In this document: positions 1 through 64,000 of the stretch, one piece after another
Layout: the number at the start of each line of letters is the position of its first letter
How positions within the stretch are numbered: position 1 is the stretch's first letter
Assembly: GCA_008632985.1 (NCBI GenBank)
Contig: QPGO01000013.1
Coordinates: 558,001 to 622,000 of the forward strand
Direction of reading: 5' to 3'
Source: Psammoneis japonica
Lineage: Eukaryota
DNA: 64,000 bases
Made by a program: the position numbers and the translations under genes
Notes under the pieces: generated by a model
What the model was told of the DNA's origin: nothing
Database searches by the model: none
Seen by the model: the letters and a program-made list of their open reading frames with translations, nothing else

Positions 1-2845
1 CATGCTGCTCCAAACCTGTGATCTTGGTTGGCTTGTGACGGGAACTTTCAGCACTTGGTTTGCTGTCTGGGACCCCATGCTCTTGGACCTTGCTCATCAT
101 CTCTGACCCTTCTTCCTTGCTCATCTTGGCCCGTGTTGACCTGCAAACTTGGAACAAGTGCTTGAGACAAGGGTCCAATCCCATGTGATGTCCCTCCATT
201 GCCAACTGGACACATGCACAGTGCACCCTCAATCCAATGAGTTTTTTCTCTTTGCAAAACACCATGTCTCCACTGACTGCAGGAGGAAACCAATCATTGA
301 TCAGTTGGTTTTCCAACACCCTGTCATGTTTTTCCAGATGAACTGCATCTGTCATTGTTTGCTCATCCCTGATGTTGAATGGCTCCCACACATGTGGTGG
401 CAGAGAGCACACACAAAATTCTTGGGAATCTGCAAGTCTTGTCTCCTGGCTTGCACCCAATCACTGTGGTGCAAGGCCGATGCTGCCAGGTGTGCAGCTG
501 CTCCACCACTTTCTGTTTGCTGAAACTGAAGATCAAAGCATCTCTGTCCAGGTGTTCATCAAAATGGATGCATCTGTTTCTCACAAATGTTTCCAAAAAA
601 TGCATCTCACCAGTGCTGTTGAAAGTCTTGCCATCTCACAGCAAAATGAAAATTGAATTTTTGATGGCCACAGCATGGCCCACTTTTGTCAAGCTCATGG
701 TGTGAATGGAGTGGCATGAAACTTGCCATGCACTCTCTGTGCAACCACTGCACTGGCTCAGCAGGCCTGTGCTTGTGCGCCAAAGCAAACCTTGGATCAC
801 CCATGTCACTGTGCATCTCTGTGCATGCATTGTCATCCACAATCACCTGTTGCAAAGTGTTTGTTGTGTGATGCCACATGCATTTCTTCACTTTGTCCAT
901 TTTCAAAAGATTTTTGTGTCAAGACAAGAAAAAAAACATGGTGAACAAGGCTTTCTGATTGTGCCAGGTTTTCCAGCTCAGGCAATTGCAGGCATTGGGA
1001 ACAGCACCCTGGCAACTCTGCCACAGTTTGTTTTTTGATGTTGTTCATCACTCTCCAGTGACAACTTGGCATTGTTGTTCTCTGTTGTGTTTCTTTTGCA
1101 GTCCAGCTGCATTTTGCAATTGTGGTTTTGTTGCCAGAGGGGCAGCAGTCATGATTTTTGCCAAACTCAAAATTTTGGTGGGGGGGCAGCAGCCACACCA
1201 TTTGCTTGTTTGAAAAATGTGGTGTCTCAATTTTCATGATTGAGGTGCGTTGTTTGTGTGTTCTGCATTTTGTGCAATGAATGACATTGAACATTCAAAA
1301 CTGTGCTTTTTTGTGTCAAATGTTGCTCAAATGGTGCATGAAATTTTGATCATCATTCTTCATTGTGTCATTTAATTTCCATTGAATTTGTGGTTGAATG
1401 AAATGCACTGTTGCCAAAATTGGTGACCCACAATTTGTCATCACCCTTGGTGACAAAAGGAGAAACAACATCATCAAATGGTTTGGAAACAAATTCTTTG
1501 TTGTCCAGGTGTGCTGGCACTCTGAAACATCATTGGCAGCTGGCCAAATGGCAGTGTCATGAGAAAGATGTGGCTCTCACACTTGTGCCACTGCACGATT
1601 GGATCTCAGTGGCCAGGGATTGTGTTGCAAGTCCACAAGACAAATGTGGCATTGGAGTGAGATCCCGTTGCAACCATTTCAACAGGAGGAGGGGCAAAGG
1701 TGGCTGGAAGAGGCAATGGCATCACCTGATTCTTTGGATTCTCTTGTTTGCAGCTGTTTGCCATGAGCATCTGTCAACTCATTGCCTGAAACACCACAAA
1801 TGCATTGAGAAAAGGAGAGTTTGCAGAGCAAACAAGCTCTGAGGTGATGTTAAAGACCAATTGGGAGGAAACATTTGCCGCAAATGGGGCAATCATTTCC
1901 TGCGGCAAAGGAAGGCATCATTGTTCATGCTGCAAACAGAGTGAGATGGAGATGTGTGGGAAGCAAAAATGAACAAAATGTGAGCCATGTGGCAAAAGCA
2001 ACACATGGCAGGTGACAAGATTGTTTTGGATGCAAGATCATTCCATGAATTAACACGCAAGATTGGTTGTCTTCACGCTGGTCTGCCGGGCTTGCACCAA
2101 GCAATTGGCAATTTAAGGCAAATCTGACTGGTCACAATGATGGAAACTTTGTCATGCTGGTGTGCATCTTAGATTTGTGCATGACCAGATGCTTGTTGCA
2201 TTTGTGATGGTTGCTTTGTTGTTTGATGCACATGGCACCCGCACAGCTGTGCTTTGTGCAACACATTGCTGCACTCTCAATGACAGACATTTTGTCATGC
2301 CAGAGTGCTCATCTTGGATTTGCATGACCAGATGCCATGAGCAACCACTTCCTGTTCTGAAACCAGAGCAGCTGAGAACATGCTTGTGTGATGGGCAGGT
2401 GCAGTTCTTTGAGGGGCAGCCAATTTCTTGTTTGCACTGAACAAAACACAGAGGAGCCACAAAAGATGCAGGAGGTCACACCCAGATGGCAAAATGGGCT
2501 TGAGTCAACATTGTGGCAAACAGAGCTGCTGGGCCATTGGCAGGGGCAAAAAAAGGAACAGGCAACATCTTTCAAACACCTGTGCTGGTCTCAAATTCTG
2601 CACTGACAACAGGAATCAAAGGCCTTTCACTCTGTTGCTGCCACAAAAAATGAGTGCTGGACCCACCCTCACTTGTTTGTGGTGGGGCAATGTGTTTCAA
2701 CTGACAGCCTTGCAGTCCGGCAGCTGGCCTCTGTGATGGTGGAGCAGTCACTTGCAGCAGAGAGAGAGGGATTGAATGGTTCATTCCAGAGAGCAGTTGA
2801 CGCCACCACCTGAATGAAAGAGATTGATGCAATCGCTTGTGATTT
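1..2845. other. TpA- and CpG-depleted, CA/TG-rich block (heavily mutated repeat-like DNA, family unidentified; runs off the window start)
   Basis: By-eye scan finds only 5 TpA in about 2.85 kb (1373, 1851, 2051, 2114 TTAA; 2170 TTAG) and few CpG. ORFs are Cys/His-rich and essentially lack Tyr. Confidence 0.85.
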
Positions 2846-3188
2846 GTAAACCAAGCGAGTTTGGATCCACAATGAGTTCCTTTGCAAGGAGTCAAATCAG
2901 GTGAATTCAATCGTCTTCCCGGCATCCTCCTCTCGCTAGAGAGAGTAGCTACTCTACTCTAGCAGTGTCTCCTTACAAAGTCCTGCAGTGCCAGGCTAGG
3001 AAAGGCGGTATATCAGTTTGAATCGATGTGGACTGCACAATAGTAGCAACATTAAAGCGACAGGTAAATGGTAATAATTAACATGAACTGCAAGTAAATG
3101 TATTGTGCATACATCACACCAATAATTAACTTCTCTCAAAGCCGGGCGCACAAGCTCTTTTCGTATCGACAGCGACCCGGCCTTCTGC

Positions 3189-6348: not shown

Positions 6349-7097
6349 GGCTGAGATTTACACTTGTACTTGTTCACTTCTTTTCTTGTTGTCGCAATGT
6401 ACCATGTACCTGTAAATGCCGTCTGCTCAATTCTTTTTTTGATACACGATTGATCGCGCGGCAAGTTGACAACAGTACGGCAGGGCGACTACTGTTGCCT
6501 ACGTAGAACGTATTGTACTGTACAGTTTGTACTGGTGCATACGAGGCTGATGAGAACCTTGATGAGAACTCTACGTAACGCTGGATCTTTTTAGCGGTCG
6601 ATTTTATTTAGAGCTCGTAAATGTTTAAAAATAACCCGGATTCTTCGTACTAATGATGCGCGCGTACACCAGGTATGAAGGTTCGGGATCTCTCTAGAAT
6701 AACGACCGTAGACATGTCTGCAGCCAGTCAAACGCCAATTGTCGGCCTTTCCTGGAAAGTTGCGGCTTGTCTGCCACAAACAGTCCAATTTTGGCGAAAA
6801 CCAGCGGTTTGTCGAACATGACAACCGCGCCCAATGTGACAATTGGCGTTTGAAGGTTGACAAGTGCAGTTCACACAAAGGTCTGACAGCCCTGATGGGG
6901 GGCAGACACACACACAAGTGTTTGGAGGTGCTCAAATGCATCGCAAAATGACACGGGCGAAGTGCGAGCAAATTGTGGAATCACGAGCTGTTTGAAAAAA
7001 TGCCGCCAAACATCGATCCAGCCTCAAACATCAAATTTGACAGTCAAAATTTCAAATTCAACGGATGTTTGACCTTCATTGATGGACTTGACACAGC

Positions 7098-10000
7098 ATG
7101 GAGCGAAGTGATGTCACCTCGCGAACACCGTTGGCCATGTTGGACGACGCCAACAATGGCGACAATGGCGGTTCCAAATTGACGCCCATGAAACCCCCTG
7201 CCAAAAGAGCAAGAGTGGAGACTCGAGACCTCGCCTTTCTTGCGAGTGAGGAAGTGCAAGCAAAGAGATTGAGCGAGAAGACGTGCTGCAATTGCACCTT
7301 GGGGTCAACTTGCCAAACACATGCTTGTTCATGCTGCAAATGTGACCAACCATGTGCCAACTGTGTTTGCTTCCACAAATGCAAGAACAAGGAAGGACTC
7401 CCAACTTGTGGTGCAAGCGACAGGAACTCGGGTGAGAAGTCACGGAAACTTCCAACCTCCCCGGAAACCAGTCCACTTCAACCGAAAATTTGTCAACTCA
7501 TCAACGGCACCCCTGATGCTGCCAACAAACAAAACAAAAACAAGGCCAACACCAAAGCCAACAAAGAAAACATCGCACCCAATGATCAGAGGTGGACACT
7601 GACGAGGGCAAAACCGACGAGGAGGTCACTGCCACCACAAGGGACAGTGAGCGGTTGGAGGACAGATCGGGCTTGGAGGGAGCTGTCATTCCATCAATTG
7701 ATGACACCAATGCTGCACCCAATGACTTCAATTCAGAGAGGCAGAATGGATCATCTGCAAGTCATGTGGCAAAACATGTTGTCTGAGCAACGGCACTGAA
7801 CTGGATGGTGGAACATTGGACGACAAAACGTGGCAAGAGCACTGGCACCGGCTGATGCCCCACCCATCACAACGATGCAACGCACCAAATGGATCAGTTG
7901 GCAAATGATTCGTGACAATGTTGGCAGAGCTGCTTGATGGTGTCATGAGACGGAAGTGGAACTCGGAGAGGTTCATGGCATGTCAAACAGTCATTTCACA
8001 GTGAGACCGCAACGCAAAAGGAGCGAAAGAAATCAGAACCCTGCTCAGCATGCGCATGGACAATTGGGATGCGGGAAAGCACAAAATGCTGGTCCAGTCA
8101 ATGGAACGGCTGCTTGAAGCAAACCCAAAGACCAAACAGAGGGAGGAGACACCTGAGCAATGCGCCAAGACAATCAACAGAATGGCACTCCAAGGGAACC
8201 TGTGAGGAGTGGTTGGGTGCATTTCAGAACGTGAAAAAGGTGGAATTCTCTCACCAGATGATGTCGATGAAAAGACCAACAACACAGTGTTCAAGGTGCT
8301 TCAGAAGAAACATCCAGATTCAAGAATTCCGGACGAAGACCACTTTCACAAATTTGACGAAACACTGGAGCTTCAGGATGTCATTGTCACCGACGGTGCG
8401 ATCAAGACCGTCATTCGCAGACTGTCCGGAAGTGCAGGACTTGGCGGATCCGATGCCAACGCAGTGTCAGAATGGCTTCTCCGCCACACAAAAGCCAGTG
8501 GATTTCTTGGAGAAGCGTTGTGCATGTTCGCGAACTGACCAGCAAACAAATCGCCCCCATGGGCTGCCTGCCGTGCAATCATGGCGTGAAACGACTCATC
8601 ACGCTAGATGAAAACCTGGGCACATGCCCGGTCGGTGTGGGAGAGGTGTGGCAATGCGCCACCGCCAAAGCCATTCTCCTTGTTGCCAGAGCAGAGGCCA
8701 AAGAGGCTTGTGGGACAGACCAGCCATGCGCTGGACTGGAAGCAGGCATCGAAGGTGCCATCCATGTGATGAACATGCTCTGGGAACAAAACAAATTCGA
8801 AGACGACTGCGGATTTCTTTTCGTTGATGCCTCCAATGGGTTCAACAAAGAGAACAGGATTCCAATGTTGTGCAACACAAGGCACCTCTGGCCATCCGGT
8901 GCAAGGTTCACCTTCAACAGCCACAAGCATTGGAGCATCTTGGTCATCCGTGGTGACTTTGGAACTGCCTTCATCCTGCTCAGCAAAGAAGGTGTCACGC
9001 AGGGCAACCCACTTGACATGGCAGCATGTGGACTGGGCCTTCTTCCACCAGCCCGGGAGATGAATGACCGTTTCAAAGATGCGTTCACCCCTTGGTGTGC
9101 CAACGACTCTGCAGCAGCCGGGAACTTCGACATCCTCTGGGATTTTTTCTTGACGCTCCGAGCCAAAGGCCCCAAGCATGGATGCCACCCCACCGACAAC
9201 TCCAAAAACGTCCCAGTGGTGCCAGAACGCAACCTGGAAAATGCTGGAGCATGCTTTGGAGACCTCGGCTTCACTGTCAAATCTGGCAGCCGTTGCCTCG
9301 GAGGCTTTGTTGGAGAGACGGATGCACGTGACCGGTGGCCAACGGAAAAAGCCAAGTTGTGGACCTCGGTCGTCCAAGGACTTGCCAAAATCGTGATTAC
9401 CACCCCCAGACCACCTGTGCCAGTCTGCAGAAGTCCCTGCAACACCAGTGGCAACATGTCCAGCGTGCAGCAAAGGACTGTGGCAGTTCATTTGTGGAGG
9501 TGGAACACGCGACACAGTGCAACTTCCTGCCAGCGCTAATTGGCGAGACCTTGGCAGATGATGACCCAAGACCAGCCCCATCTGCCCCACCAATCAAATT
9601 CTCGGGACTGTCCATCCCTCATCCAATGGAGTCTGCAGCTCAAAACTTTCAAGCAAGTGCCTTCACGTGCTCCCACGTGATCGACTCACTGCGCGGCCGC
9701 TCTCAATTCTCCTCCGCAGTCCACAAGGACACCATGCGTGAAGTGAGACAGGCAGCAGCTGAACGGAAAGCCAAGGTGCACGAGGAGACCCTCAAATCAA
9801 TCCTCAGGACTCTGCCCGACCTCAAAGCCAGAGCTGTCAAGCGCAGCACCAAGACAGGCACATGTTTGTCAGCGCACCCTTCAACACTGAACGGCGCCAA
9901 ACTCTCATGCCAAGAGTTCCGGGATGTGCTCTTCTTTCGGCATGGCAGCACTCCATCGGATCTCCCAGAGCACTGTGATGGATGCAGATGCGAGTTCTCC

Positions 10001-10657
10001 ATGAACCACGCCCTTCAGTGCAAGAAGGGCAGCCTGGTCATCTCATGACATGATGAAGTCAAGGACAACCCAGGTGATCTAATCGGCAAGGCCTACAAAC
10101 CTTCCCACGTGCACAACGAACCTCTCATCAACCCCATTGGTTGCATCTTGGGAAGTCCAAGCACTGCCAACAGCTCCCCAGGCAACACTGACTCCAACAA
10201 GTCCAAAGATGGCGATCGTGGAGACCTTTTCGGCATGAGATTTTGGGATGGAAAGACAGACATGGTGACGGATGTTCGAATCCCTGACACGGATGCGAAG
10301 TCACACCTGTCCAAAACACCAGAAGAAGTCCTGGCACAACACGAACGTGAAAAAAAGTGCAAGCACCTCAAGCCCTGTCTTGAACAATGCCGTCATTTCA
10401 CCCCTTTTGCAGTGTCGTGCGACGGGCCACTTGGCAAAGAAGCCAAAGCGATGCTCCGCAAGATCGCGTCGAGACTGTCGGACAAATGGCAAAAGCCACA
10501 TTCGGAAGCATGCGGCTGCGTCAATGTGAGAATGAGCATCACCACAGTCCGAGCGACTCACCATTGCCTCAGGGGATCACACATTCCCACATCACAGACA
10601 AGCTCCAGGTGACCCCAGTGGGAAGATGGTGCAGGTCTGTCTCTCTGCAGACACTGA
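7098..10657 (+). mobile_element. Inactivated non-LTR retrotransposon, single ORF with RT + C-terminal restriction-like endonuclease (CRE-like)
   Basis: RT motifs: PVGVGEVW, AGIEGAIH, FVDASNGFN, EGVTQGNPL, WCAND (=WYADD), GSRCLGGFVG (=YLG). RLE region: CDGC...HALQCKKG, RGDL, DVRIPDTDAKS, FTPFAVSCDG, CLRGS. Broken by frameshifts and TGA stops. 3' UTR extends to about 10930. Confidence 0.9.
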
Positions 10658-10965
10658 AAAGGCCCACTCCGGACGGAATGCCCTCACCCAGACAAGATGC
10701 TGACCCACTGCCAAACAACACTGCAGATGCTCTAGCGACAAGATGATGACAACACCCTGACACACCAACTCCGGCACCAGAATGTTTTCAAAATTTAACA
10801 CGCACAGCAATCGAAACTTGGGCGTGACAACCACCCCCCACTCGCACGACTGCATTAACTGCACAATGCCCATTTTATCACTGCAGTTTGTTGGACATTT
10901 TAAATGACCACACATGACCATTTTTTAGATCTCCGGTTGTGTTTCATGTCAAGCAATGAATGCGG

Positions 10966-11510
10966 ACCAGAGAAAAGCGCAAGTGCCTCAAGCCCTGCCT
11001 TGAGCAACGTCACCAATTTGCTCCCTTTGTCACATCATTCGATGGACTGTTTGGCAAGGAAGCCAAGGCAGTGCTGTGCAGAATCTCTGCCAAACTGGCT
11101 GAGAAATGGCAAAAGCCATGTTCAGAGGTGTGCGGCCATGTCAATGCAAGAATGAGTGTCGCTGTGGTGTGGGCAACTCACCGTTGCCTCAGGGGATCAT
11201 GCATCCCTTTGTCCCCCAGATCAGCTCCAGATGTCCCCAATGGAAGGTTGGTGCTGGTCCATCCCTGTGCAAGCACTGGATGACCCCACATGGGCCAGAC
11301 CACTCATGCGGAAAGTGCACCAACCTGCTGCTCACAGAGACCATCAACATCATGCCAAGAAGACAACAAAAACCTGGCAACATGCTGGTTGCGGCACCAG
11401 AATCCATTCAAATCTCACGCGCACAGCTCACAAAAAACTGCGCCGACAACCGCCCCTTGCTTGCATGACTGCATTGACTGTGCAATGTCCACTTTTTCAT
11501 GTCAAACAAT
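10966..11510 (+). mobile_element. Second, 5'-truncated, diverged copy of the same retrotransposon family (RLE C-terminus + 3' UTR)
   Basis: REKRKCLKPCLEQRHQFAPFVTSFDGLFGKEAK...CLRGS aligns to 10346-10657 at an offset of about 620. 3' UTR segment 11453-11490 matches 10837-10872. Confidence 0.85.
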
Positions 11511-12327
11511 TCACACTCTGTCCATCCACACAACTGTTGAAGCATCTTCTGTGTGACCCAGAAAGAAGATCCCCAACCCGAACTTGCGAGCCTGCTGCAT
11601 GACCAAAACCCCCCTTCAGCAAAAAAAATGAACTTGCGCAGCTTGAAACTGGCTGCTGACCAAACAAATTAGCACCTCATGGACTGACCTGTTGACAGAG
11701 GCAAAAAGCCATTGTTCTCAATGCACTGTGTTGTTGGGAAGCCCTCATGTGTGGAGCACCTTTGCCCCATCAAAATTGCCGTCAAGGTCTTCGGGGGGGG
11801 GGGTTCCTCCCGCAGAAAGCATGCATTCAGGGGGGTTCACTGCACAGAATCAGTGCCAAGACTCTGTGGCACCAGTGAACCATGATGTGGCTCGGGAGGA
11901 TGTGTGCACAGAAATGCACACAGAGCTTGGCTGGGTCAGAAGGCAAAATGCCAACTTTGTTCTGCAGATGCAGCAGTGAGGGGCACTTTAAAAATCAAAT
12001 GAGCTGCCAAAATAAAGCACGCCTCTGTGCCAATGGATGTGACATTGCCGCAGATGTCTTGTTGTCTTTTGCATTTTTGCCGATGGTCTGCAGGGCAGTT
12101 TTTGTTGCACCATGAAGGCAAGGAACCACTTGATGGCTTGGGGCACCAACTGCACACAATGTGCATGATTTCACACAGCGAACCACTGCATGGTTCATGG
12201 TGGGAGTGGGGCCAGCCAGCAACTGTTTTGCATTGTGTGCAGACAGCATGCACCAGCAATGTGGGGTGCCACATGAGGATGTTGATGAGAACACGCCATG
12301 GATCTTTTGGTTCTCACTTTCACAATG

Positions 12328-12363
12328 CCCCCCCCCNNNNNNNNNCCCCCCCCCCCCCCCCCC
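12328..12363. repeat. Poly-C run containing a 9-N assembly gap (12337-12345)
   Basis: Directly visible. Confidence 0.95.
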
Positions 12364-14952
12364 TGTCCACACCCCTCCACTGTTGAAAGTGAAGATGAAC
12401 ATCAGAGCTCACAACATTGCTGGAAATTGACAAGGCATGCACTGCCAGTCAGGTGCAATTGCTCCCCCCAGCTCTTCCACCATGCAGCTCTTGCAGCAAC
12501 ATTGTTTGTTGGTGGTGGAGCTTCCCTGGGACCCCAGATGTGTGTTGTCACCCCAGGTGAAATGAGGCACACACATCCTTCTCCTGGGATCAGATTGTGT
12601 TGTCCTCTTTGCCCATCTTCCATTGACATGCATTTTGTGCAACAGCAAATCTGATGTGAATTTTGCCCCAATTTGTCATTGCATCTTTCACCAGATTTGT
12701 TCATTTTTGAAGATGGTCCACAATCTGTGTGCACTGGAGGAGGGTGTGCACAAGAACACAGCAATTTTGACATGGCCAGTGCAAAGCTCATGGACAACTG
12801 TGCATGATTGTTTCACATTTGAGAAAGCATTTTGCTGTGTCTTTCATTGCACCTGACTGCTTTTGAAAGAATGCCCATGATCTTCATCTCATGTGAAGAC
12901 ACCCCATGCAAAGAGAGTGGCAGAACTCTCTGGCTCTGATTTTTTTTTAAGAAAAAAAAACAAGAGAAATCTGTCTCATGCATGTGTTTGTTGTGCATCA
13001 CTGGCTGTCTCAAAGATTGGCTGATTTGCTGACGTGCATGCACAAGAGTCTTGAGTTGTTGATCACATGCACTGGTGGCAACACAGCAGTGCCATCAAAG
13101 TTTGACAGAAGTGGGTCAATTTGAGTCATTTGAAAGGCAGAGGCAACAACGCAGTGTCTTCAAAATTTCAGCTCCGGTTCAAGAAAAATGAGTCACACTT
13201 GCACCTGGCTGAGCTTCTCAATTGTCACCACACACAATCACAAAGCTGGGCAATGTTGCTCTTCTGTTCACACCAAAATTTGGCAAGTTGGTGCACTTCC
13301 CCATCAAAGCAAAAGCATCATCCACAGTGACTTTAAAGCAGTTTAAAAAGCCAGCTTGTCTTGAGAGGTGAGCATTGTGAAAAGCCCCACTGCACAGCCA
13401 AAGGGAGAGAAAAGGACACAAATGCCATGAGTGGAAAAGCTTGACAAAAGGCCTCACAAGCCAAAAAATCAATGTTGCTCCAAAAACACCATTGGGCTGA
13501 TTGCAGTCTTGTTTGCACTCTTGCTCCCACATCCCAGACATTCATTGGTTCCCAAATGCAGACAAGGTCATGGCAACTGCATGGCACTGTTTCTGGTGTG
13601 TGGTTTGCAATGCAGAGCATGAAAAAATGTCTTTGTTTTTTGGCTCAATTTTCTTGCATGGGTTTGGTGCCAAGTGTGCATCACATGCACAAGTGCACAG
13701 AAAACCTGATGATTTGTCATCCAAAAGTTTCTCACCTGGCATGAAAACATGCTCCCGCTTCAAGAGGCACACCTCTTTTGCTGTGTTGGCTCTCCCGTGA
13801 ATTGAAGAGTGCATCAAAGAAACAAGTGTGATTCCAGATCAGACGCATGACAACAAATTGAGTGGCAAGTGCAGGCACAGCTCTTGTGTGAAAACTGTTG
13901 CATGCCAGCAAAATGGGGTGGCTGTGGCAAAGTCAACTCAGGATCTTTGCTGTCTGCCAACAAGGTTGCTCAGCATTGTGACTCCACATGACCAGGATGT
14001 TGCACCCATTGCACCAACATGTCCTCTCTAAAGTGGTGGAAGATTGGGGTCATGTCCTGTGGTCTCCTTGCAACAACAGCTGGTTCCAGACTTTTCTGCC
14101 AGACCTTTGGAGCTTGCCAAACAACTTTTAGTTGCTGTGGCTGTTGAAAGAAAGACTTTCTTCTCTCTGGGATTAAAAAAGTGGTTTTTGATGACAAAGT
14201 GCTGCTCACCCACTGTTTGTCACCTGGCCTCTCAGGCACATTGAACAAAAAACAAACAAGAAGTGATGGCTGGACAAACAACAACAACAAGCACTGACCT
14301 CTGTGGCTTTTGATGGGAGTCCAAAAGAGCTGCCCTTCTTTTGGTGACACCTTTGCATTCTCTCCTTTGGTGCACCCTCAAAGAAACAACCAAAAATCAT
14401 CCCTGCTCCTCACCAAACCAACTGAGTTTCACTCCCAGATGTCTCGCAGCAAATCTTTCTCATCTTGGAGTGAGGTTTCTGGGTCTTTTGGAAGCAAGGG
14501 ATGCAACAATTTAAATTGAAAATGCTCTGTTCTGGAGAGAGTTGTGGATTTTTGTTTTCTTGCCAACAAAAGGGAGAGGACACACACACAAACACGCTGA
14601 CAAATTTTCTTGGCATCATCACAGAATTGTGCTTTTCTGCTGTTTGAGCTTGCTGCCATTGTGTTTTTGTGCTTGCGCAACTCAAAACACCACAGTGGCA
14701 CAGGTTGCTGTGCAAGTGTCTTGCGGTGCATGTTTTGTTCTTCTTGTTTTGGGCTGCAGCTGCAAGAAGTTCTGGTTGGCAGCATCAAAAAGCAAAGATT
14801 TTTTTGGTGCTAGAGAGCAGCTTTGTGAATGATTTGTTTTGCACTTTTGCATTTTCTCACATTCAAAAAGTGCTGCACAAGCAGTGTGAGAAGGGTTGAC
14901 AAAGAAGCAAAAATGGCACATTTGTGTCTAGCGGTGAGTTGAAAAAAGAGAG

Positions 14953-14978
14953 GAGAGAGAGAGAGAGAGAGAGAGAGA
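14953..14978. repeat. (GA)n microsatellite
   Basis: Directly visible, about 13 units. Confidence 0.9.
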
Positions 14979-46668: not shown

Positions 46669-46703
<35 letters not shown>

Positions 46704-46750
46704 ACTACTACTAGGGCCCTACTACTACTACTCTAGCTAGAGGAGCTATT
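46370..46750. repeat. Low-complexity CTA/TAG/AGAG-rich intergenic tract with (CT)n and (CTA)n microsatellites
   Basis: Dense ctctagag, ctagctag and tactactac motifs directly visible. Confidence 0.8.
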
Positions 46751-49637: not shown

Positions 49638-50027
49638 TAGACTAACTCCTAATACTGCAGTAGACGTATAACATAGAGCATGCCTAACCCCCTCTCTCTG
49701 TCGGTAGAATACCTTGGCTACATCCGACAACATGTTCTACCGGTATTTCCTGCAGAAGACTGATTTTGTGAGCGTGGAAAAGACAGGACAGATGTACAGA
49801 CAGAGTTTTTTATTCTTTTCCGACAATGGATAAGTAAGATATAATAATAAAACCTTCAACGATGAATACGAAAAACCTACGACGATGTATATCTTTTATA
49901 TCTAAATTCAAATTCGGCGGTTGGGAAAAATCAACGGGAAAAGCCAAACACAAAGACGCACCATCATCCTTCCGTTCTTTATCAGCGTCGTCGAGCATTT
50001 TATAACACGGAGACAGTGTCGATAACA

Positions 50028-53000
50028 ATGGAGGCGCAAGGCGAAACAGCATCAAAAAATATACTGCTTGATTTGTGGGCGTTGCTCTTGTGGCTCGGAA
50101 CGTTCCAGCAGTTCTCGGCCGAGTTTGTTCGTGACGAGAATGTGAGCGAAAGCGAAATGAACACGATACTAAACGACCCGGCGTTTGTAGAGTAAGTTAA
50201 AATGAATACTACTTTCTATATTGGGTATGTGGAACTCGAGAAATCTCATGCCGTGTCCGTTTTGTATTGAAAACCTTGAAGGGCCCTGGTGAACATTGCC
50301 GAAGAAGTTTGTCAAAAGAGCTCAAGCGATCTTGGTGATCAGAGTACTATCATGTGGCAAAAGGTTCATCGTATTATCTCATCGATAGCCTCGGCTCCGG
50401 CTCTGGAGAACGCCAGCTTCGACACCGAACCAAGCAACGAAAGAAAATTTGCCCTCATGTGCTGCTTGCTTGGTTTTGCGGTAAACAAACGCTGCCCAGA
50501 GCAAGGCACGTATGTTGGAAAAATAAGAGGAATGAGCCTTACAGCACAACGGAGGATCATGACTATTATCGGAAATGTAGGTGTCGTTGCCCACCAGGAC
50601 GCCAAAACATTGAAACCAGAGTTACCATCCGAGGGGAGTGCAGTGCGTCGAAAGCACGACGAAGCTTTTGAATCAAAAGACGCTGAACAGTCTGATACAA
50701 CACCTTCCAAGAAGCACAAAGACAGCGAAGATACCTCAAGTGTTGAAGATGCATATACACCGGATACAGTAGACTCGGCCGCAGAACGAGCAATGGAGCG
50801 GCTTCGAGAGCAAAACACGGATCTCCAGAAGAGGCTACAATCCAGCGAACAACGCGAAGAAGAACTCGGAGAAAAATTGCAATCGGTAGAAGCTGAGCAC
50901 AAAAAGTCAATGATAAAGGTCGAGTCTGCTGCTCTGCGAAGGGAAGAAGAAATTCGAGAGGAGCTTATGGCAGAGGTGGCAACTTTGAAGGCAAAAGTCG
51001 AAGATCTAACCTCACGCGAAGAGGACGAGACTAGTTCGCAAGAGAAGCTACAAGCTCTTCAAGATGAAATCGAGGTTCTGCAGCACAACAAAGTAGCGCT
51101 TGTACAGGCGGAAGAAAAGATCCGAAACTATCAAGATCGTTTGGAGCAGAATGAGAACATCAAGGCCGCTCTCAAACGCGAAGAGGAAGCCCACGCCAAG
51201 TCTGTCGAGGATTATTTGCGCGTTGAGAATGAGCTCAAAGTCCTACAACCTTTGAAAAAACAGCTTGAAGAGTACAAAGCTAGGGCAGTTGATGCAGAGG
51301 TCAAACTTGAAGAATGTCGAGATGACTTGAAACGAATGGAAAGTATGAGCCAAACGCTTGATAGTGCTAAGAAAGATCTCGAGAAAGGAGCCAGAATTCG
51401 CGAAGAGGAAGTCGAGGAATTGAGACATCGTTTGTGTCAGGAAGGAGAAAGAGAAGAAGGTGGTCAAGGCATTGGTGAAGGCATGAGGTGAGTTCTAGTT
51501 GATTTTTTTCTCATTACGAATTTCCGTTATTGTTGCTAAAATTATGCATTTGTTTGACATGCAGCGAGCTCAACCCTGTTCTGAAAGAAGAACTGATGCG
51601 TTTACGCAACGAAAACGACCAGCTTCGAGCCTTTGCAGCGAAGAGAGAAGATGACGCGGTTCAGAAACTTGAAGAGAAGCTGGATGACAAGGAGCGACTC
51701 TCCGTTCGGTACAAGGAGCGATTTCTAGATACCAAGTCTCAACTTGAACAAACTCAGACTAAACTCACCGATGCTATCCAGCGTGAAGAACAACTGAAAC
51801 TTGACGTTGCTGACTGGACCAAGAAATTCAACGACACAACGGAGCTCGCAACTGAATACAAAAGAGAGTTGGATATGACGGTGTCCGTCTTGGAAGAGAC
51901 TCAACCATTGCTCGTTGATGCCAAACTCGAAGTACAGGAGCTACAACAAGAGATTCAAGGTTGGATAGCCACGAATGAAGAAGCGAATCAATCTATTCAG
52001 AACCTAAACGATCTATTGGAAACAACCAAGGCTACTTTGGAAGAACGGGAACAAGATCTTTTGGCTTCGCAGGAAAGAGAGGTTAATCTCATTCGGGATG
52101 TGTCAGAATGGACGGACAAGGCGAATGGAGCAGAGGAACGTGCTAATGATGTACACCAGGAGCTCGAATGTACTCAGGCTATTTTAGAAGAGACCCAACA
52201 CGCTTTACGTAACGCCGAAGAAGAAGTTACGTCCTTGGAAGTGACGGTATCAGACTTGAAGTCGAACGTTGTAACACTTGAAACCACTCTGGCGGAAGAA
52301 ACGAAGCGGAGGGACGATGATGCCAAGGCCGCACGCAAGCTACTAGAAAGAACAGTTCAAGATCTGAAAGAAGTGGCAAGCAAAGAGTTGGAGAAACAAA
52401 AGAAAGAAGGAAGCACCACAATTGAGCATGAGAGAAAACGGTTTGAGAACGAGCTGTCAGACAAGGCCGCAGAGTTCGTTGCTCTTGAAAAGAAATGCGA
52501 ACAGGAAGTGCAGGATGCAAAACAGACTTCGTCCGAGACGATCGCTGCATTGCAGCAGAAAAATGAAAAGGAAATAGCAGCGTTGATCGAAACGCATAAG
52601 AATGACGTGGACAAACTGGCGCAAGAGTCTTCGGACGAACAGGATCGACTTGTACGAAAAGGCCGTGGAATGCTCAGTGACGTCAAACGGGACGCAAAAG
52701 AAAAGCAGCAAGAACTAGAATCTGAAATTCAGGAGTTGGCCGATACGGTTGCTAAATTGAAGGAGAAGAATATCGATGTGGTGCAGAAAGCCAAGGAGAA
52801 GTTCTCTAACTACAAGAAGCAATTACAGGTTGCGGACGGAAAAATAAGCGAGCTCTCGTACGAAAAACAAGAGTTGGAGGACACCGTTAAGCACAAGGAG
52901 CGAGAAATGTTCACTCTGCGGGAAGAAAGCGAAACCTACAGACGTCAACTTGGGAGTCGTTACGGAGCCGACGGAAAGACACAACACCAGCTTGAAGCTC

Positions 53001-53698
53001 TTCAAAAGGAATTCAATGCAGTGCTGGAAGAGAACCGGGCCTTGAAGGCAAGACTGAAAGGCGCAAACCTGAATCTTTACGACCAAGGCACCATCGAGAG
53101 TAGCAACCCTGGGGGTGCATCATATGCCGCTGGAACCGTAAGGCGATCAACCATCGCGCAACTTCGTGAGGAGTACGAGGCCAGGATTCAAGTGCTCAAT
53201 GACGAGAAGCGTGAGCTGGTGATGAGGAACTCTGCAGCAATGACCGATGTACAGAGAGCGGAGCATAGAGCTTGGGAGTCCGATGCGAAAGTTTCTAAAC
53301 TGAGAGATGAATTGACGACAGCAAAGCTTGCTCTTGAGCGCGTTCAGCAAAGCTCTGAACATACGGATGCGTCCTTGGAAATGAATGACCTTCTCGAGAA
53401 AACAGATACTCCATCAGAGAAGAAATCCGTCCCATCAGATACGCAGAAGGTTTTATCAGTTTTGTCCCCTAATCGGCAACGAGCGACTCCAGCGCAGCAG
53501 GTTGCAAAGAGGAAGACAGCGACTCCGCAGCCGCTACTTCCTATTGATGTCTATTCCCTTGATCCGGCTACGGTCGCGGAGAGGACGTCTTCGCGAAAGA
53601 AAACAGACAGTACGAAGAAACTCGTTCCAACTCTCATGGATCAAGCAACCCTCGGTGATACTGCCCCCGAAGGCCAGCAGGAATGTCAGCAGAGCTAG
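50028..53698 (+). CDS. HOOK-like coiled-coil protein (3 exons)
   Basis: LLGFAVN..CPEQGTYVGKI...AQRRIMTII resembles the HOOK N-terminus, and ELNPVLKEELMRLRNEN resembles the HOOK spindly-box region. Long coiled coil. Confidence 0.7.
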
Positions 53699-53999
53699 GT
53701 ACTGTATCTTTTTGGTGGGAAAGCGGGAAGGACCGACATCATGTATTTCAAGGGTTCACGATTGTTCGTGTTATCGGTCGCCTACCACAAATCAGATTTG
53801 CATAATTATGGAAGCGCTCATCTGTTAGAGAGACGGCGATAGTTATAGGCCAAAAGCCAATAGGAGCAACGTCAAACTAACCTCTCTAGCTAGTGAGCAC
53901 TTTATAACTGGGATCATAGCATGCATGACCAATGTAATGTGAGACTAGAGCATATCGTTGTCAGCAGCAAACATGTGGCATCTGTCTCTAATGTCTTCA

Positions 54000-55384
54000 T
54001 CAAAGCTCTTGCTTCTCCGAAGAAGCGGTTCCTTCCTTCTCCCTACTGGTATTACTTGCGTGCCCTCCTTTTTGCATACTGCCGTAAAGCAGCGTCAGGT
54101 TTATTCTGCGATTTTCGTATCCTTTTCGAAACTTGAAAGTATCAGTGTGATGGAACAAAGCGGAATCAAAAATGACGGCCCTGTTCTGCAAGTGTGGTAC
54201 AGTGACATTGGCATAGTTGGAAGGCTTCAAAAGTTCCTCCATGACTTTATCTGTATCTGTATTATACTTTTCAAAATCCCAGTCATCTACTCGTACAGCA
54301 AATATAATAATGGTTCAAAACAGGACACGCGACAAAAGACGAGATGAGTTGGCAAGACGATACCAGCTGCACCAGGGTACACTCTAAGTTTCTCACCTGG
54401 TGGCTTTGTGGTAAAAATAACGAGACCGCCACTGTTGGGGTCTAAGTTGGCCTCGTCTGGAGTTATCCAGAGATTTACATTTACCGCTGCTTGATCGGCA
54501 TGGGTGTTGATTCCGGTGTACTCGGAATCGTACTTGTATGCCCATAGGTATTTTAACGGATGATCCTTCATAATGTTTGGGAGGGCTCTGTGAAGCTCAA
54601 AGGCCAGTTTCAACAACACTCGATCGTATAGTCCATCGTCAATGTAAGCCCCGACGTACCCACCAAACTTCTTTGGCATTTTTGTTTGATACCAAACGGT
54701 ACTCTCCATCAAGACTTGGCGAATTCGATCTAAGGCTTCACTTGATAAAATGTCATCTACAACTACAACCCCAGGAGTGTGGTGCTTTGGATCCTTGCCG
54801 AACCATTGACTTTCAATCTTGCCGAGATCCAAGTCCGGATTCAACAGGGGAATAGTCGATCCATCCGGTCGAAATTCATCTATTGATGTATGATGCAACG
54901 CCTTGTTGTAAATCTCTAGGATACCTGCGTTGACGTCAGCTTGTGAAAAGGCGTACAATCCGTGCGTTTGTTCCAATTCTTCGAGCGGCGGTATGTTTTT
55001 CAAAACAGATTCATACACTGGAATCACCACGTCTCTGAGAAACGTGGCCTTTTCTGCATCGACATTCTTGAGCCGCTTTACGAGATAGTGCGCTTGTTCC
55101 AAGTCTGCTTTCAATTTGTAAGCTGTCGTATAGGTCGAACCTCCACCTCTTGCAATCAAGGTCTGCGGCAATGGGACCCTCTCTTCCTCACCTCTTGACG
55201 GATTTCGTTCGGACCGCGCAAACACATTTGCCAATGCCCAGTGCAAGCCATCCAAGTCGCCTTGCTGAAAGAAGTACGCAATGTCGTCACTGTCAAGCAG
55301 TGGAGGAAATTCAACCTCTTCTTCCGAAACAATGGAATGCAAAAAACAGTACCAAATCAACAGCACAATTCTCAAGGCCTTCAT
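54000..55384 (-). CDS. Secreted 2OG-Fe(II) oxygenase-like protein (2 exons)
   Basis: Signal peptide, WAYKYD...HAD..VNVNLWIT, NRAVIFDSALFHHT...RRINLT (HxD...H...R). Confidence 0.75.
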
Positions 55385-55752
55385 TGTTGTTCCTTGAGCT
55401 CTTGTCTTTGACAACATCAAGACTCAAGACTCGTTTCCCCACACGCCCACACGAGAAAGCAAGAGATGAAAGATCGTGAAAGCCGGATGCACATGATTTT
55501 TTTTGACAAAGTACGTCAACCTCCGGGTCTCTCTAATTGTTTCGGGGTATTTGAGTTAGTCGAAGGGGTCATAACTTCAAAGTAGCCGTTTACTATTGCC
55601 CCACCATACGGAAAGCTCACTCGTACATTTCTACATATGGAAACACTCGGTACAAAACTGCCGTTCTGTTTTCCCGAACTTTTCTGCCGTCCGCCGACGT
55701 CGTGCACTTTTTTATTCTCGAGCTCACGTCAAAAACGCGATCGCTCCATGAT

Positions 55753-57549
55753 ATGACGAGCGCTTCGGGTCTTGAACACATTAGCGCAAAACTCCACGAC
55801 TACATAATGACACCTCGTAATGTCAAAAGACAAGCGAGTATAGATGATACCACGGATCGAGAGGAAATGGAGATTTATTCATCCGCAGAAGAAGAAGCTG
55901 CAGGGTCATTATCGCTGAAGCGAGCTCATGCGGCCAGCGGCCAGAATGAGCTAAAGGGCACATCTCACAAAGAAAAGTTCCAACTCATGCTGGAGAAACT
56001 AACGTTATACAAGGAAGAACACGGGAATTGTCTCGTGCCCTATGGAGGTCAGGACGCGTATCTGGCTAGATGGGTGGGCCGTATGAGGCTTCTGAAAGAG
56101 AAGGAGAAGCTACCGCAAGATCGAATCGACAAACTAAATGCTATAGGATTCGTCTGGCAAGTAAAGCATAAAACGACGTGGGACGAAATGTACGAGCGCT
56201 TATGCGAGTTCAAAAAGAAAAACGGGCACGTGATGGTGCCTCAAAAGTACAAAGACGATCCGAGTCTAGGTGAGCTCAGTCTCGTTTTTGCACACGTTGT
56301 AGTGTGTTTTCTTCTTAGCGCTCACACCTCGTCTCGTTTGACAGGACGGTGGGTCGATACTCAGCGAGAAGGGAAGGCTCGTCGTATTACTCCAGAGCAA
56401 AAACAAAAACTGGATGATATTGGCTTTGTGTGGTCAGCACTTAATCAATCATGGGATGCCATGTTTGACGAGTTGTGCGCCTACAAGGAGGAGTTTGGCG
56501 ACTGCAACGTGACTCAACGATATACGCAGAACCCGAAACTGGGGCGATGGGTAAGTGTTACAACAGTAATTATTTGCTTTTGTACTGCTCAAGTTCGTGG
56601 ATAAAATTTGTAAAACCATTGTTTCGCTTTTCTCACCTGTTTTCCTTGTCTCTCTCGGCATACGGTACGGTAGGTCAAGAACCAACGATTACGCAAAGAC
56701 TGTTTGTCGGATGACCGTATCGCCCGTCTCAACTCTATTGGTTTCAAGTGGAGGCGCGCACACAAGAGTTTTGATGATGAGGAGTTGGAACTTTGGGAAA
56801 GCATGTGCGACAAGCTTACTGCGTACTTTGAAAAGCACGGTAACTGCAACGTTGGCAAGAGAAGCGAGCTTGGCATGTGGAGCAGGAACCAACGCTTGAA
56901 GAAGCACACACTGACCAATGAACAGATTGAACGCCTCGACGAGATGGGGTTCGTCTGGGATATCGATGCGAAAGATGCCCAAGGGGGGAAACAAAAACAT
57001 CGAACGAGAAGAAAGCCTGAAGTACGTAACGAAGCGTGGGACAGGGTTTTTACGAGGCTTTGCGAATACAAGCTTGAGCATGGAAACTGTCTTGTCCCTG
57101 TGGGTTGGCCAGGAGATCCTGAATTGGCGGCCTGGGTGCGATTCCAACAGGCGAACAAGGCGAAATTGACTGACACTCAAATTGAGCGACTCGATTCAAT
57201 TGGTTTCGTATGGGATTTCAACGAGAGCAATATGCCAAATGCCATGGCTGGTAATAGGTTAGGACAACTATTTCAAGCCCAACAAGCAGCTCAACTGCTA
57301 GGCGCCATGTCTCGGCAGCGACCGCTACCACCGCCCCCGCCGCAAATGTCAAGCGCTTTTGCTGGTCTTTCTTGGCAGAATTCCATGTTGAACCAGCAAC
57401 GACAACAGCAAGAAGAGAGACATCCGTGGGATCATCCATCGAGTAGCTCAATGCCGGTGCAGCAGCTTGTTACCACCCGACAACTTAGAGCCATAACAGG
57501 CCAAAATCCCGACGATGAGTCATCCAATTGGACCTCGGGTTGGGAATGA
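55753..57549 (+). CDS. Helicase-associated (HA) repeat protein, paralog 1 (5 HA repeats, Gln-rich tail)
   Basis: Repeated W..M...L..YK...G.C.VP...L..WV..QR...L..IGFVW. Introns at about 56270-56344 and 56551-56673. Confidence 0.88.
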
Positions 57550-58189
57550 GATCATGGTTCTACTTCAACTCCGGAACGTGGAAGGGGATTCCAATTATTA
57601 GATTGAGGAGAGGATGATTCGGCTTTCAGGGCAAAGCTGATGCTATCTTAGACACTTCGTCACAGAAGGTCCTCACTTTGCACATGACGCACTATACGCA
57701 TTGATAGCAAGTCTCATACCAGCAACTACCACGCTTGTTCATGGTGGAGGACACGATCCTTCCTCCGTGACTTAGAAATCGTTGTGTGCGTAATTCATAT
57801 TATAAACAATTCTTGTAGGGGTAACGTAGCTTTCTTCGCATCTCTTTGACTTCCGGATTGGCCCGGTTTCGCCATCGCTAGAGATTTTCGAGAGCGTGGC
57901 TATTTCTGCTCTGCTACTTCACAAGGCATGTCGTCTGCTGAATAGAGTTTTGCTTGAGTGTGTCGACTATGACCACCAACGGCTGTTGAATATCTCTGCG
58001 GTAGGATTAGAGGCGTTTGGTGTCGATTCAGACTATCATAAGTGAGTGTTCGCTTTCGTTCCACTCAATCGGCACCAAGCCACAGCCAATCCATAAACTA
58101 GAGAAAGAGGTTCACCAAACACGAAAAATCATTGGTTTACATTCATACTCAGACTACCAATAGTAGGCTACGACTACGTGCTATGTGAC

Positions 58190-59410
58190 TCCCCAAATCA
58201 CAAAGAGGATGCCTTCAATGGGCTTCGTCAATCAAAATTTCTTCCTCCCAGGAGTCAAAATTTTCTTCGAAGCCCACGTCCTCGTCATGGTCATCATCTT
58301 CCAAATCGTCAAAGCCCTCCGGTTTTTTACCGTCGTTCAAAACCTGGTGAACGAGCGCCGTGTCTTGGGCTGAAATCTGTTTGAGAACAGGTGACAAAGC
58401 TGCACGGAGGTCATCTCACCCAAAACCATCTGACCCAGCAGAACATGGTGGCGTGTTTTGGGAGGAAAGTTCTTGGCGACAAAGTCTTGCAGTTTGGCCA
58501 AATTTTCATTGAAAAGGCGATTCGAGTGGTGAACTTCTTTGGCTGTCTGGGTGTTCAAATGAATGTGAAGATACGGGAGTTCCATGACTTTGCCACCAGC
58601 AACGTTGATGAAGCGCCCGCGGATTCATTGTCGCAATGCGTGATGAGCAAAACAACAGAGCTCACATGATGGCCTGTGGCACCGGAATTTCTGATCTTCC
58701 AAATGCAGTCTGGTCCCATGAAAGGCTTTAGCACTTCCATGCCTGGACAAGGGACAAGGCACAGTCAAGTCGAGGATCCATTGTCAATCATCGCGTTTGG
58801 GTGAGAGACACACCGGCAAAAGAACTCACTGAGCTTGGCGCACAAAGAAGCACTTTTTGTGGTTTCACATGGCAATGGCTTTGATGTGTGGGGGCAGCAA
58901 ACTGGCTCATAGATTAACTGCAGCATGGGGACTCGCTTCTTCCTCATTTGTCTTTTTCCTGGCACTCACATTGCTTTCTTTTTGTGGTGTTGAAAGCCTT
59001 TTGGACTTGAACACAAGCAATCGGGTTGCAGGAGCTGGAGATGGAATGTGAGTGCATTCAATTGGGTTTGCTTGCAGTGGCAGGGAAAGGCAGCTGGGGG
59101 CCATGGCGAGATGAGCGTTGCTGGCGTTCGCGGTTTTTTACAGGTGCCAGATGCCAGAAGCCAAGTCTCTCACTCTCTCTCCGGCTGCACAGGCGCACAG
59201 CTCAAACGTGCACCAGTCGAAGCACACATGTTCATGTGCACATGAAGAGCAGCATGAAGACACACCGCTTGTGTACTCTGTGCATTGACATAAATGTTCA
59301 ATGATGCGAACACCGGTTCACAGATTCTTCACAGAATGTGAATGGCGACATTTGCAATTTGGAATTTGCCGGATCGATCGATTTTCTGTGCGTGCGATGA
59401 TGACATCATC
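58190..59410. other. Small partially TpA-depleted island (degraded minus-strand gene or element)
   Basis: About 8 TpA in about 1.2 kb while CpG remains common. Only fragmented ORFs. Confidence 0.6.
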
Positions 59411-61323: not shown

Positions 61324-61616
61324 TGCTTTCAGCGCCAAGTGTAAGCATACAGGTATATTGTAGCTATTCATTTACATATGGGATTGTACTCTACTGGTCT
61401 GTCTTTCACTAGAGAGTGTCATGTCTTGCTACAAACACTTTGGAGCTCATAGGTTCTAATACACGCTGGTCCTAGCATAGGCTCAACCTATGGTCCTCTA
61501 TTACTAGCTACACTCCAGAGAGAGTGCGCCAGAGGAAGAATTTCTACCGGAAGTAAAACTTGGTGTCGAAAGAAAATGAGATGTGTTGTCGTTCATGGTG
61601 TGATGGAGACTATCTA

Positions 61617-64000
61617 TGATGTGTCATTCACTCCCCCGTGTCAGAGGTTTTGTGACATTGTCATTTTGTCGACACAGTTGACGATGGCAGACAGGAGTCT
61701 TTGGCAAATCCTTTCCTGCATGTCTTGTCACAGATTTCATCGCAGAAATCTGCACGAAGATTGTGCTGCTTGTGTTGGCATGTGTTTGGCAACATGCACA
61801 GTTTTCTCACAACTGCCTTGCACTTCTGTCATTTGCCATTGCAGCCACATGCACCATTCCCAGAGAGCATGTTTTTGGAGGCCAGAGGCAGCCGTTTGTT
61901 CAGCACATTGAAGATCATGTTGGGCAAGACAGAAACCTGGATGTGTTGATTGGAGATGTGGCCAGCACACTCACATCACTGCCTTCACAATGGCAGTGTC
62001 TTTTGCTGAAGTCAAGTGCACCAAAGTTGTTTGATGCTGACAATGGGAGGGCACAAGCAGTGCTGCACATGATGCCATTCTTGGGCTGGACAAAAATGCA
62101 CTCTGCTCCTTGTTTGACCATGTGAAACTTGCAGAGTCCAACAAACAGAGTGGTGATGGTTTGCAGCATGGAGTCAAGTGTCCAGGAAGCACCCATGCCT
62201 GAAGACATGGTGAGAGTTTGAACTTCAATTTTGACATGCACCATGCAAGAGGGATTGTGTCACAGCAGCAGCAGAAAAAGGCATTCTGTCAAGGAAGTCA
62301 AGAACAGAAAAAGAGTGTGCAGGCCAGTTTGGTCGACAACTCCAGTGCAGGCTGTGGCCTGCAGTGAGTGGGTCCAGCCTCTCCTTGAGGAAGTGCAGCC
62401 TTGCAACACAGTGACTGCCAAAGAAGAGAAGGAGCAGGAGCAAGAGGAGAAAAGTGAAGACAACAAAGTCTCAGAAGAGAGCACAGTTGAAGCACTGTCA
62501 CAGCCACCAGCAACAACAACCAATGAATCCAGATGTCCAGAACTTGCCAAACTGGTCACCCCTGGTGTGATCTTTGACAACAAAGCAGCAAGTGCCTGGC
62601 AAGGTGCTGGAGCAGGTGCTCATCAACACAAAAAGAAGGATGCTGTGCATGGAGAACTCACATGTGTGGTCCAGAACAAGAAGTGAGCAAGGTTGCTTGT
62701 GTTGCCAAATGCCACCAACAATGACAAGCTCCAAAATGCTTTCTTCAAGAAGACTGTCATGGAGAGCATCAGCAGGAGTTGAGAGTGGCTGCAAGATTGT
62801 TGCTGAGTTCACCATTGGACTCATGTCTGATTGCAAACCATCAACAATGTTGGCCAGCACAAAGGTCCTAAAAACAGATCATGTCTGCAACCTGATGGTG
62901 CTCTAGACACCAGGGTGACAAGGAAGACTGTGTCTGTGTCTTGTTGCGCCCAAGCTGGCAAAAAAGGACCAGCTGGTGGCCCACTCTGGTGTGCAGGTGT
63001 GAGCACAATGGCTGCAAATGTCATCAAGCAGGCCATGCTGTGGAGAGAAAGACCTTGGGCTTGACTCTCAGAAAAGAAAAAGGGCAACACTTTTGTGAGC
63101 AAGCAGGAGACCACTTGGGGCACATGCTGGGGCTCACTGTGCTGGCTTTGTTGCATTGCAGCTGGAGGGAGAGAGCCAGGGGAAGTTTCACATTGCTGCA
63201 ATCATGAAATGCAAGGGGCAAGCATGTGATGCCATGAAAAAACAGTGGTCACATTTGAAAAAATTTGTTGCTGTGGTTCAGAGCTGAAATGTGCTTGACA
63301 AGAAGCCTGTGTTTTGATTCAGTGCTCATCCTTCATTGCAAAGGGGCAGCTTTTTGCAATTGACCAAATCAGCAAAGTGGGAAACCAGACTCAAGAAAAT
63401 TTGGTGTTGCAGCAATGTGTGGGCTCTTGACAAAATGACCCCTGCACTGGCAAAGCAGCAGGAGACAACAATGAGTGAAACATTCTTCATTTCTGTGCAC
63501 ACACATGGTCAGTTGTTTTGTTGCTCATTGGCTGGAGCATGCCAACAATTTGATTTGTTCATTTGTCAACTGTGGTGCACACTTTGCAATTTTGCTCTCT
63601 TGTGATGTTTGCTTCTGCCCTGGCAATGTTTGGCATTTGGTGCATGCTCTTGTTTCATGCTCTCATTTCATTGACTTTGCCCCCTCTTTTCTTAAGACAT
63701 TGTCCTGCCACCTCTTGCAGTCTGTTCTGCATCTCAGTGTTCTTGGCTGTGCTGCTTTTCATTGTGTGTGAGATGCAAGACAGCAATCCCTGACAGAAGA
63801 CAGCAGAGAAGTTGTCAGTTTGGCACTTTTTGTTTGGCAAGCATGGCACAATGCTGCTGTTTCTGCTTGCCTGTGTGCAGTGTTGCAGCACTTTGTTTCT
63901 TGTTCTTGGCTGTTTTTGTCAACTTGTCTGAGTTTCAAGAACAAAAAAAGGCAAAAAAGTGTCAACTTGTTTGTTTGCCACAAGCTTCCTGCTCCTTCGT
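61617..64000. other. TpA- and CpG-depleted block (heavily mutated repeat-like DNA; runs off the window end)
   Basis: Only 3 TpA seen in about 2.4 kb (62869 CTAA, 62904 CTAG, 63693 TTAA). CpG is nearly absent after about 61900. Confidence 0.85.

Follow-up and report, generated by a model that had tools for sequence, protein, structure and literature searches.

Why do sharply bounded blocks of a diatom genome contain almost no TpA dinucleotides? The question is raised by a 64,000-nucleotide stretch of Psammoneis japonica (assembly GCA_008632985.1, contig QPGO01000013.1, positions 558,001 to 622,000 of the forward strand; the window, numbered from its first letter), in which three strong blocks at 1-2900, 6716-15250 and 61620-64000 have TpA observed/expected (O/E) ratios of 0.018-0.047, computed block by block. 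TG and CA are raised to 1.4-2.0 in the depleted blocks of the window. Comparison of unmutated with mutated retrotransposon copies from elsewhere in the genome shows a real, enzyme-like process that is directed at repeats and changes A:T to G:C, and its preference for T-A-Y could be quantified (Y, pyrimidine; R, purine).

The three strong blocks, counted here as 1-2900, 6700-15250 and 61620-64000, retain 35 TpA: TTAA 14 times, CTAG five times, and TTAG and CTAA four times each (27 YTAR sites), together with eight half-sites that have TAY on one strand, and no RTAY. Half of the half-sites lie inside the blocks (TTAC at 9398, CTAC at 10094, TTAT at 10876 and ATAA at 12013) and half at block borders (GTAA at 2847, ATAA at 6700, and GTAG at 6709 and 15215). 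Ordinary DNA makes up 48.8 kb of the window and contains 1995 TpA, of which 18% are YTAR and 29% RTAY (RTAY 575, RTAR 531, YTAY 533, YTAR 356). Fisher tests covering 34 of the 35 survivors, with one border site left out, separate depleted from ordinary DNA for both YTAR (27/34 vs 356/1995, p=2e-14) and RTAY (0/34 vs 575/1995, p=2e-5). These counts bear out an earlier note on this DNA, which claimed that the survivors are mostly YTAR and never RTAY, and the YTAR bias that might have been common to ordinary intergenic DNA is absent outside long open reading frames (ORFs) of the ordinary DNA (YTAR 166/808, RTAY 208/808).

The direction of change was determined with long terminal repeat (LTR) retrotransposons. 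Copia and Gypsy reverse transcriptase (RT) searches of the 91.4-Mb genome gave 150 matches each, from which 30 loci were fetched; these yielded families with both unmutated and mutated copies, with the natural unmutated copy serving as reference. Most differences between it and the mutated copies are TA>TG and TA>CA changes, which are intermingled over the length of each copy, and most of the fetched elements also have TpA-poor flanks. Tracts were scored as hit where 55% or more of the neighbouring TpA are changed; within them, 2605 TpA observations from five families comprise 1087 TG, 934 CA, 8 CG and 576 unchanged sites. In a count of the spectrum at TpA in the tracts, A>G accounts for 1962/5060 and transversions for 25/5060, such that 99% of the changes are transitions.

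The two LTRs of an element are identical at insertion. In 14 LTR pairs, 274 differences are in TA/TG/CA/CG steps and 36 elsewhere, and among 308 site pairs with TpA in the unmutated LTR, 77 pair a TG with a CA (in a further 74 just one LTR is changed, in 124 both have the same change, in 31 neither is changed, and 2 are not scorable). This discordance, with the interleaving of TG and CA, shows that the change was made on chromosomal DNA, after insertion and on both strands. The change is confined to the 5' LTR at 56 site pairs and to the 3' LTR at 18 (LTRs of L166-L183), although these sites are not independent of one another and a 3' LTR served as the reference. Only 25 of 344 Tyr codons in pol survive, and there is thus no sign of protein function restraining the mutation. 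A group of 99%-identical Copia copies includes one with a single fresh tract (L109), suggesting that the mutation is recent.

Survival of TpA in hit tracts depends strongly on its flanks, being 5% at RTAY (37/736), 24% at RTAR (122/500), 20% at YTAY (175/863) and 48% at YTAR (242/506), or 0.049, 0.214, 0.202 and 0.467 respectively when each of 680 reference sites is counted once. Because TAY is the reverse complement of RTA, and the two are one site, survival cannot separate a preference for the A of TAY from one for the A of RTA. Product direction at the asymmetric sites (YTAY and RTAR) does so: the product is on the TAY strand in 749 cases and on the RTA strand in 314 (215 and 73, with 57 ties, counting each reference site once), and the TAY-strand excess is seen in four of five families, the fifth having 11 cases divided 6 vs 5. 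The A of TAY is thus preferred over the A of RTA, and the preference is modest, at 2-4-fold. The earlier note was correct in inferring that it is the A of TAY that changes, with TAR a weaker substrate, but the YTAR survival from which it argued would be expected equally if the A of RTA were preferred.

A two-strand hazard model was fitted to 2402 observations, after dropping TATA overlaps and TA>CG. Hazards relative to A at the +1 position are 3.9 (3.2-5.2) for C, 3.8 (2.9-5.1) for T and 1.6 (1.3-2.1) for G, with ranges from a bootstrap over 618 sites. The corresponding values for C, T and G are 2.5, 1.9 and 1.5 at +2, 0.8, 0.53 and 0.65 at -2, and 0.56, 0.34 and 0.8 at -3, such that a T three bases upstream and an A two bases downstream slow the change. 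These values predict TTTAAA to be the most resistant site, and it is the commonest survivor in the window (5/33). The order of pyrimidine over purine at +1 is common to all four families fitted, and the +1 context preference is present at all three codon positions.

At the dinucleotide level, TA is hit ~27 times more than AA (0.388 vs 0.014) and about 15-fold more than CA. Off-motif A>G is nonetheless elevated in hit tracts (CA 0.025, AA 0.014, GA 0.007) and is again higher before C or T, retaining the +1 pyrimidine preference. The same context order extends to 1271 de-duplicated 500-bp tiles, cut from loci that transposon and gene searches of this genome had brought up, which are not a random genome sample: the 636 TpA-poor tiles (O/E <0.15) contain 49 RTAY, 246 RTAR, 244 YTAY and 616 YTAR sites, which is the order forecast in advance (RTAY < RTAR = YTAY < YTAR) and not a uniform depletion of NTAN contexts.

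The mutated domains have sharp limits. Among 31 Gypsy copies compared with one reference, and chosen by similarity or RT score in a manner favouring unhit sequence, nine are hit throughout, three are hit lightly and 19 contain a sharply bordered, unhit island that is 0.6-1.9 kb long and usually covers the gag end, protease and RT start. When the same stretch is compared in island and hit copies, TpA A>G is 0.041 vs 0.419 and CpG transitions are 0.009 vs 0.049 (p=2e-10), with other C>T at 0.0094 vs 0.0083 and transversions at 0.0047 vs 0.0020. The islands are as old as their flanks and have been spared both TpA mutation and CpG decay. Gene conversion as their cause is ruled out, as the islands show no reduction in transversions or in non-CpG C>T. 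Inheritance from one mutated ancestor is excluded by a copy-to-copy outcome concordance averaging 0.63 (350 pairs), against 0.56 from 4-mer context alone, and selection on the protein by the loss of Tyr codons. That islands of one element are spared despite many copies of the same stretch does not favour a simple dependence on homology. Islands recur at the same place in independently mutated copies (L165:3100-4100 and the matching part of L166-L172, L174, L178 and L179), with others at about 3860-5175. In the lightly hit copies, 34 pairs of changes lie within 15 bp where ~13 are expected, and 26 of the 34 are on one strand (p=0.003).

The window itself contains a non-LTR retrotransposon copy, the endonuclease-like end of which we take, from its motifs, to be of the restriction-like endonuclease type. 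Pfam and PDB searches with its degraded ORF gave no RT match, and the ORF of a related copy (L040) scores 0.97 to RVT_1-bearing clusters. Forty-six further copies or fragments align with it at 69-88% identity, and all 47 are TpA-poor (0-22.5 per kb), including those with ~60 CpG per kb, showing that TpA was lost first and not via CpG decay. The Tyr codon of the YADD-type motif is an RTAY site, and either strand has been changed about equally: among 28 copies it is TAC in 3, CAY in 14, TGY in 10 and other in 1. Column-wise polarisation within this family agrees in direction with the TAY preference but is weak, with every copy already mutated, and gives a TG share of ~0.57 at YTAY and ~0.36 at RTAR; the LTR families with unmutated copies were used for polarisation instead. 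Six of the 35 surviving TpA cluster at 10733-10926, in the A/T-rich 3' tail of the element.

The TpA-depleted blocks of the window are mostly repeats, parts of them interspersed, with no origin assigned for 11500-15250, 58190-59400 and 61620-63250, and the host genes are spared (Table 1). Block 1-2900, with five YTAR survivors (1373, 1851, 2051, 2114 and 2170) and the border GTAA, matches 46 other places in the genome with identities of 65-97%, of 65-77% in most cases. At the right end, which has three YTAR survivors (62869, 62904 and 63693), 75 matches are found for 63250-64000 and none elsewhere in the genome for 61620-63250. Block 11500-15250 has no match among the fetched loci, to which its search was confined. 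The weaker block, TpA-poor but CpG-keeping, sits between HA-domain genes and has possibly been targeted recently. Other Pfam-identified genes in the control region encode a transketolase (15603-17420, named relatives of which are diatoms), RING and PLAC8 proteins, and kinases. This window also contains a gene-internal Pro/Lys/Glu-rich tandem repeat (31857-32432), an exact 115-bp duplication (32673-32903) and a forward-strand ORF (44141-46159) with a weak match to an ice-binding-like adhesive domain.

Table 1. Features of the 64,000-nucleotide window and their TpA and CpG content (O/E ratios).
Feature	Position	Strand	Remarks
Old repeat block, TpA and CpG both erased	1..2900		TpA O/E 0.028, CpG 0.11
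Repeat fragment without TpA	6716..7043		85% match to locus L037
Non-LTR retrotransposon copy	7044..10880	+	TpA erased, CpG partly kept; reverse transcriptase, Cys/His cluster, endonuclease-like end
Reverse transcriptase YADD-type motif	9093..9107	+	Tyr codon is TGT (Cys) in window copy
Second, partial 3' piece of related non-LTR element	10952..11500	+	70-82% matches to same non-LTR family
Older block, TpA and CpG erased	11500..15250		TpA O/E 0.045, CpG 0.15 (measured over 11001-15250)
Control, gene-rich, not hypermutated	15301..58150		TpA O/E 0.59, no YTAR bias
Fourth, weaker block	58190..59400		8 TpA, O/E 0.10, including one RTAY; CpG 0.67, largely kept
Old repeat block, TpA and CpG erased	61620..64000		TpA O/E 0.018, CpG 0.07

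We propose that a host enzyme system mutates silenced repeat DNA where it stands. Either strand of TpA can be targeted, yielding TG or CA, and a changed site is no longer a target, such that TpA drains away, with RTAY (two good targets) lost first and YTAR (none) last. The co-located CpG decay suggests that the mutator works in CpG-methylated silent chromatin, and the hit domains would then be those marked by 5-methylcytosine (5mC). In Phaeodactylum, loss of DNMT5a is reported to deplete methylation and release young transposons (10.1101/2021.06.11.447926). Within such domains a TadA/ADAT2-type deaminase, an enzyme class that the earlier note offered as a candidate, may convert adenine to hypoxanthine in briefly single-stranded DNA, which would be fixed as G at replication; the effect would be to destroy the transposon proteins, with Tyr replaced by Cys or His, the catalytic motif included. 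We regard it as close to certain that TpA undergoes A:T to G:C change after insertion, on either strand, 2-4 times faster at TAY, and in sharply bounded domains with faster CpG decay. For the whole chain, including a host deaminase mutating silenced repeat DNA in place, we put the probability at roughly 0.55.

Deamination is favoured by the near-purity of transitions (25 transversions vs 1962 A>G) and by the pyrimidines on both sides of the changed A, features expected of TadA/ADAT2-type enzymes. Profile searches made exon by exon identify an ADAT2 gene and two genes with ADAT1/ADAR-type deaminase domains (L204/L205, G000:C79; L203, C40), along with further zinc deaminases that we take to be an organellar-type TadA, a dCMP deaminase, RibD and two more. 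At L155:313-1785 (reverse strand), a zinc-dependent deaminase domain is joined to a 2OG-Fe(II) dioxygenase.

Several observations weigh against a deaminase. Searches with PF00383, PF14437 and PF02137 found only single housekeeping-type genes and no dedicated enzyme, although these use known profiles exon by exon and would miss a divergent one, and ADAT3 was not identified in the deaminase profile searches. The ADAT2 has Asn at the position of TadA D108, but so do the aligned mouse and yeast ADAT2 chains, and this residue is thus no marker of a DNA editor. The off-motif order of CA over AA is weak, as the two do not differ in the larger Gypsy set (CA 0.024 and AA 0.023 in one comparison, 0.020 for each in another). 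The likeness to TadA is to an engineered variant, the parent of which, ABE8e, is described as having no motif preference (PMC12528748). Heavily hit tracts have no strand coordination (0.513 vs 0.499 +/- 0.010), as expected from many separate small events, and the short same-strand clusters of the lightly hit copies fit polymerase gap-filling as well as deamination.

Filling of short gaps in silent repeats by an error-prone Y-family polymerase (Pol iota- or eta-like), inserting G opposite a template T right after T, is the strongest alternative, though we consider it unlikely. Such gaps could arise, for example, from repair of deaminated 5mC, and both the same-strand clusters within 15 bp and the co-located CpG decay suit short patches. 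Three such proteins are encoded in the genome, one Pol iota-like and two Pol eta-like; a Y-family polymerase at L198:1192-2355 (reverse strand) has its best solved relatives in Pol iota (E 2e-26), and not in kappa or eta. The WA motif of Pol eta, and the mixed errors of eta and iota, predict AA hit at near the TA rate and many transversions, neither of which is seen in the hit tracts. The survival of TpA does not vary consistently with its distance from CpG, and TpA is nearly gone in copies that kept most of their CpG. In its context order the process is closer to a TadA-derived editor than to Pol eta.

It is less probable still that a modified base in the repeats, either an oxidised T in R-T-A or a methylated A in T-A-Y, mispairs or is converted, the context being that of the modifying enzyme. 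An event on A cannot be told from one on the paired T by sequence, and the both-strand, domain-wide, all-or-none behaviour resembles that of an epigenetic mark. Against it, an exon-wise search of the genome found no TET/JBP match, a blank that is weak, and TAC is hit as fast as TAT, which does not fit an ApT-specific N6-methyladenine.

Editing of retrotransposon RNA or cDNA from A to I ahead of insertion, for which the two ADAT1/ADAR-domain genes might be enlisted, is contradicted by LTRs of one copy differing as TG vs CA, by the interleaving of TG and CA in about equal numbers per copy and by the TpA-poor flanks, and we consider it highly improbable. Equally improbable is that there is no A>G process at all, but instead ordinary repeat-induced point mutation (RIP; CA>TA) in TpA-rich copies, CpG decay alone, protein selection or an assembly artefact; CpG is depleted in the same blocks and TG and CA are also products of CpG decay, but the polarised copy comparisons and the loss of Tyr codons contradict this, the TpA-rich Gypsy copy (O/E 0.93) has the best RT score, and public-run contigs match pieces of block 7791-14938 with 0-1 differences each, from a run that may be the source sample. 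All 12 metagenome relatives of the Gypsy pol, found by a search that favours intact copies, are similarly not erased (TpA O/E 0.68-1.02, some with CpG O/E 0.14-0.28), and say little about other diatoms. Spliced contigs from run X3 cover two flanking genes and almost none of the TpA-free block; these were not used as evidence.

The adenine editors used in the laboratory were obtained by evolving an enzyme that acts on tRNA, and a natural genome-wide A to G change over transposons would suggest either that a native DNA adenine deaminase exists or that a mutator of an unknown kind is at work. There are also consequences for annotation. With TAA and TAG stops removed, dead elements keep long open frames and look intact, their internal stops being mostly TGA; most of the listed RT matches in the genome sit in such frames. 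LTR-based age estimates are also inflated by TpA hypermutation.

Hypermutation of the same kind is reported so far in one preprint on one unrelated alga, and our literature search, to which subscription journals were mostly closed, returned no report of TpA erasure in diatoms. In the chlorarachniophyte Bigelowiella natans, integrated nucleocytoplasmic large DNA virus (NCLDV) and virophage DNA undergoes TpA hypermutation (Mettrop et al., bioRxiv 10.64898/2026.01.13.699255). That process resembles the diatom one in being almost only TpA>TpG and TpA>CpA, on both strands and region-limited; its TpA-poor clusters are enriched for transposon domains, and ADAT2 is proposed as a candidate. The Bigelowiella rate was measured in mutation-accumulation lines, being ongoing at ~1000-fold above background and active in some lines only, whereas the diatom process is inferred from copies. 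In the diatom, the process has gone almost to its end on retrotransposon families, its TAY preference has been measured, and it leaves sharply bounded islands unhit and coincides with CpG decay; the main text of the preprint has no treatment of flanking context, trinucleotides, CpG or diatoms. The context measured here provides a fingerprint against which candidate enzymes and the Bigelowiella mutations can be compared; the diatom process works like that of Bigelowiella and may belong to the same system.

The TadA-derived editors ABE8e-YA and ABE3.1, the TadA-8e variant of which edits YA, with YAY over YAR, share with the diatom process A>G change on DNA and a pyrimidine before the A, but are engineered, Cas9-guided and prefer YA broadly (PMC12528748), whereas diatom TA exceeds CA ~15-fold. 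The Pol eta phase of antibody hypermutation, which makes A-to-G and T-to-C transitions (PMC9858799), is similar in favouring A>G after T and in its short clusters, but differs in that AA is hardly hit in the diatom and transversions are ~1%.

Fungal RIP resembles the diatom process in form, both consisting of dinucleotide-specific transitions that cripple repeats in place, tied in RIP to methylated silent DNA. The polarity is opposite: RIP creates TpA by C>T changes, and the diatom process depletes TpA by A>G changes. In the diatom, C>T outside CpG stands at the same level whether or not the DNA has been hit, and TpA falls. We tentatively suggest, at somewhat less than even odds, that diatoms and chlorarachniophytes share a natural TadA/ADAT2-type DNA adenine editor brought to methylated silent chromatin, a genome defence akin to RIP with reversed polarity that would turn T-A-Y into T-G-Y and leave a lasting map of silencing.

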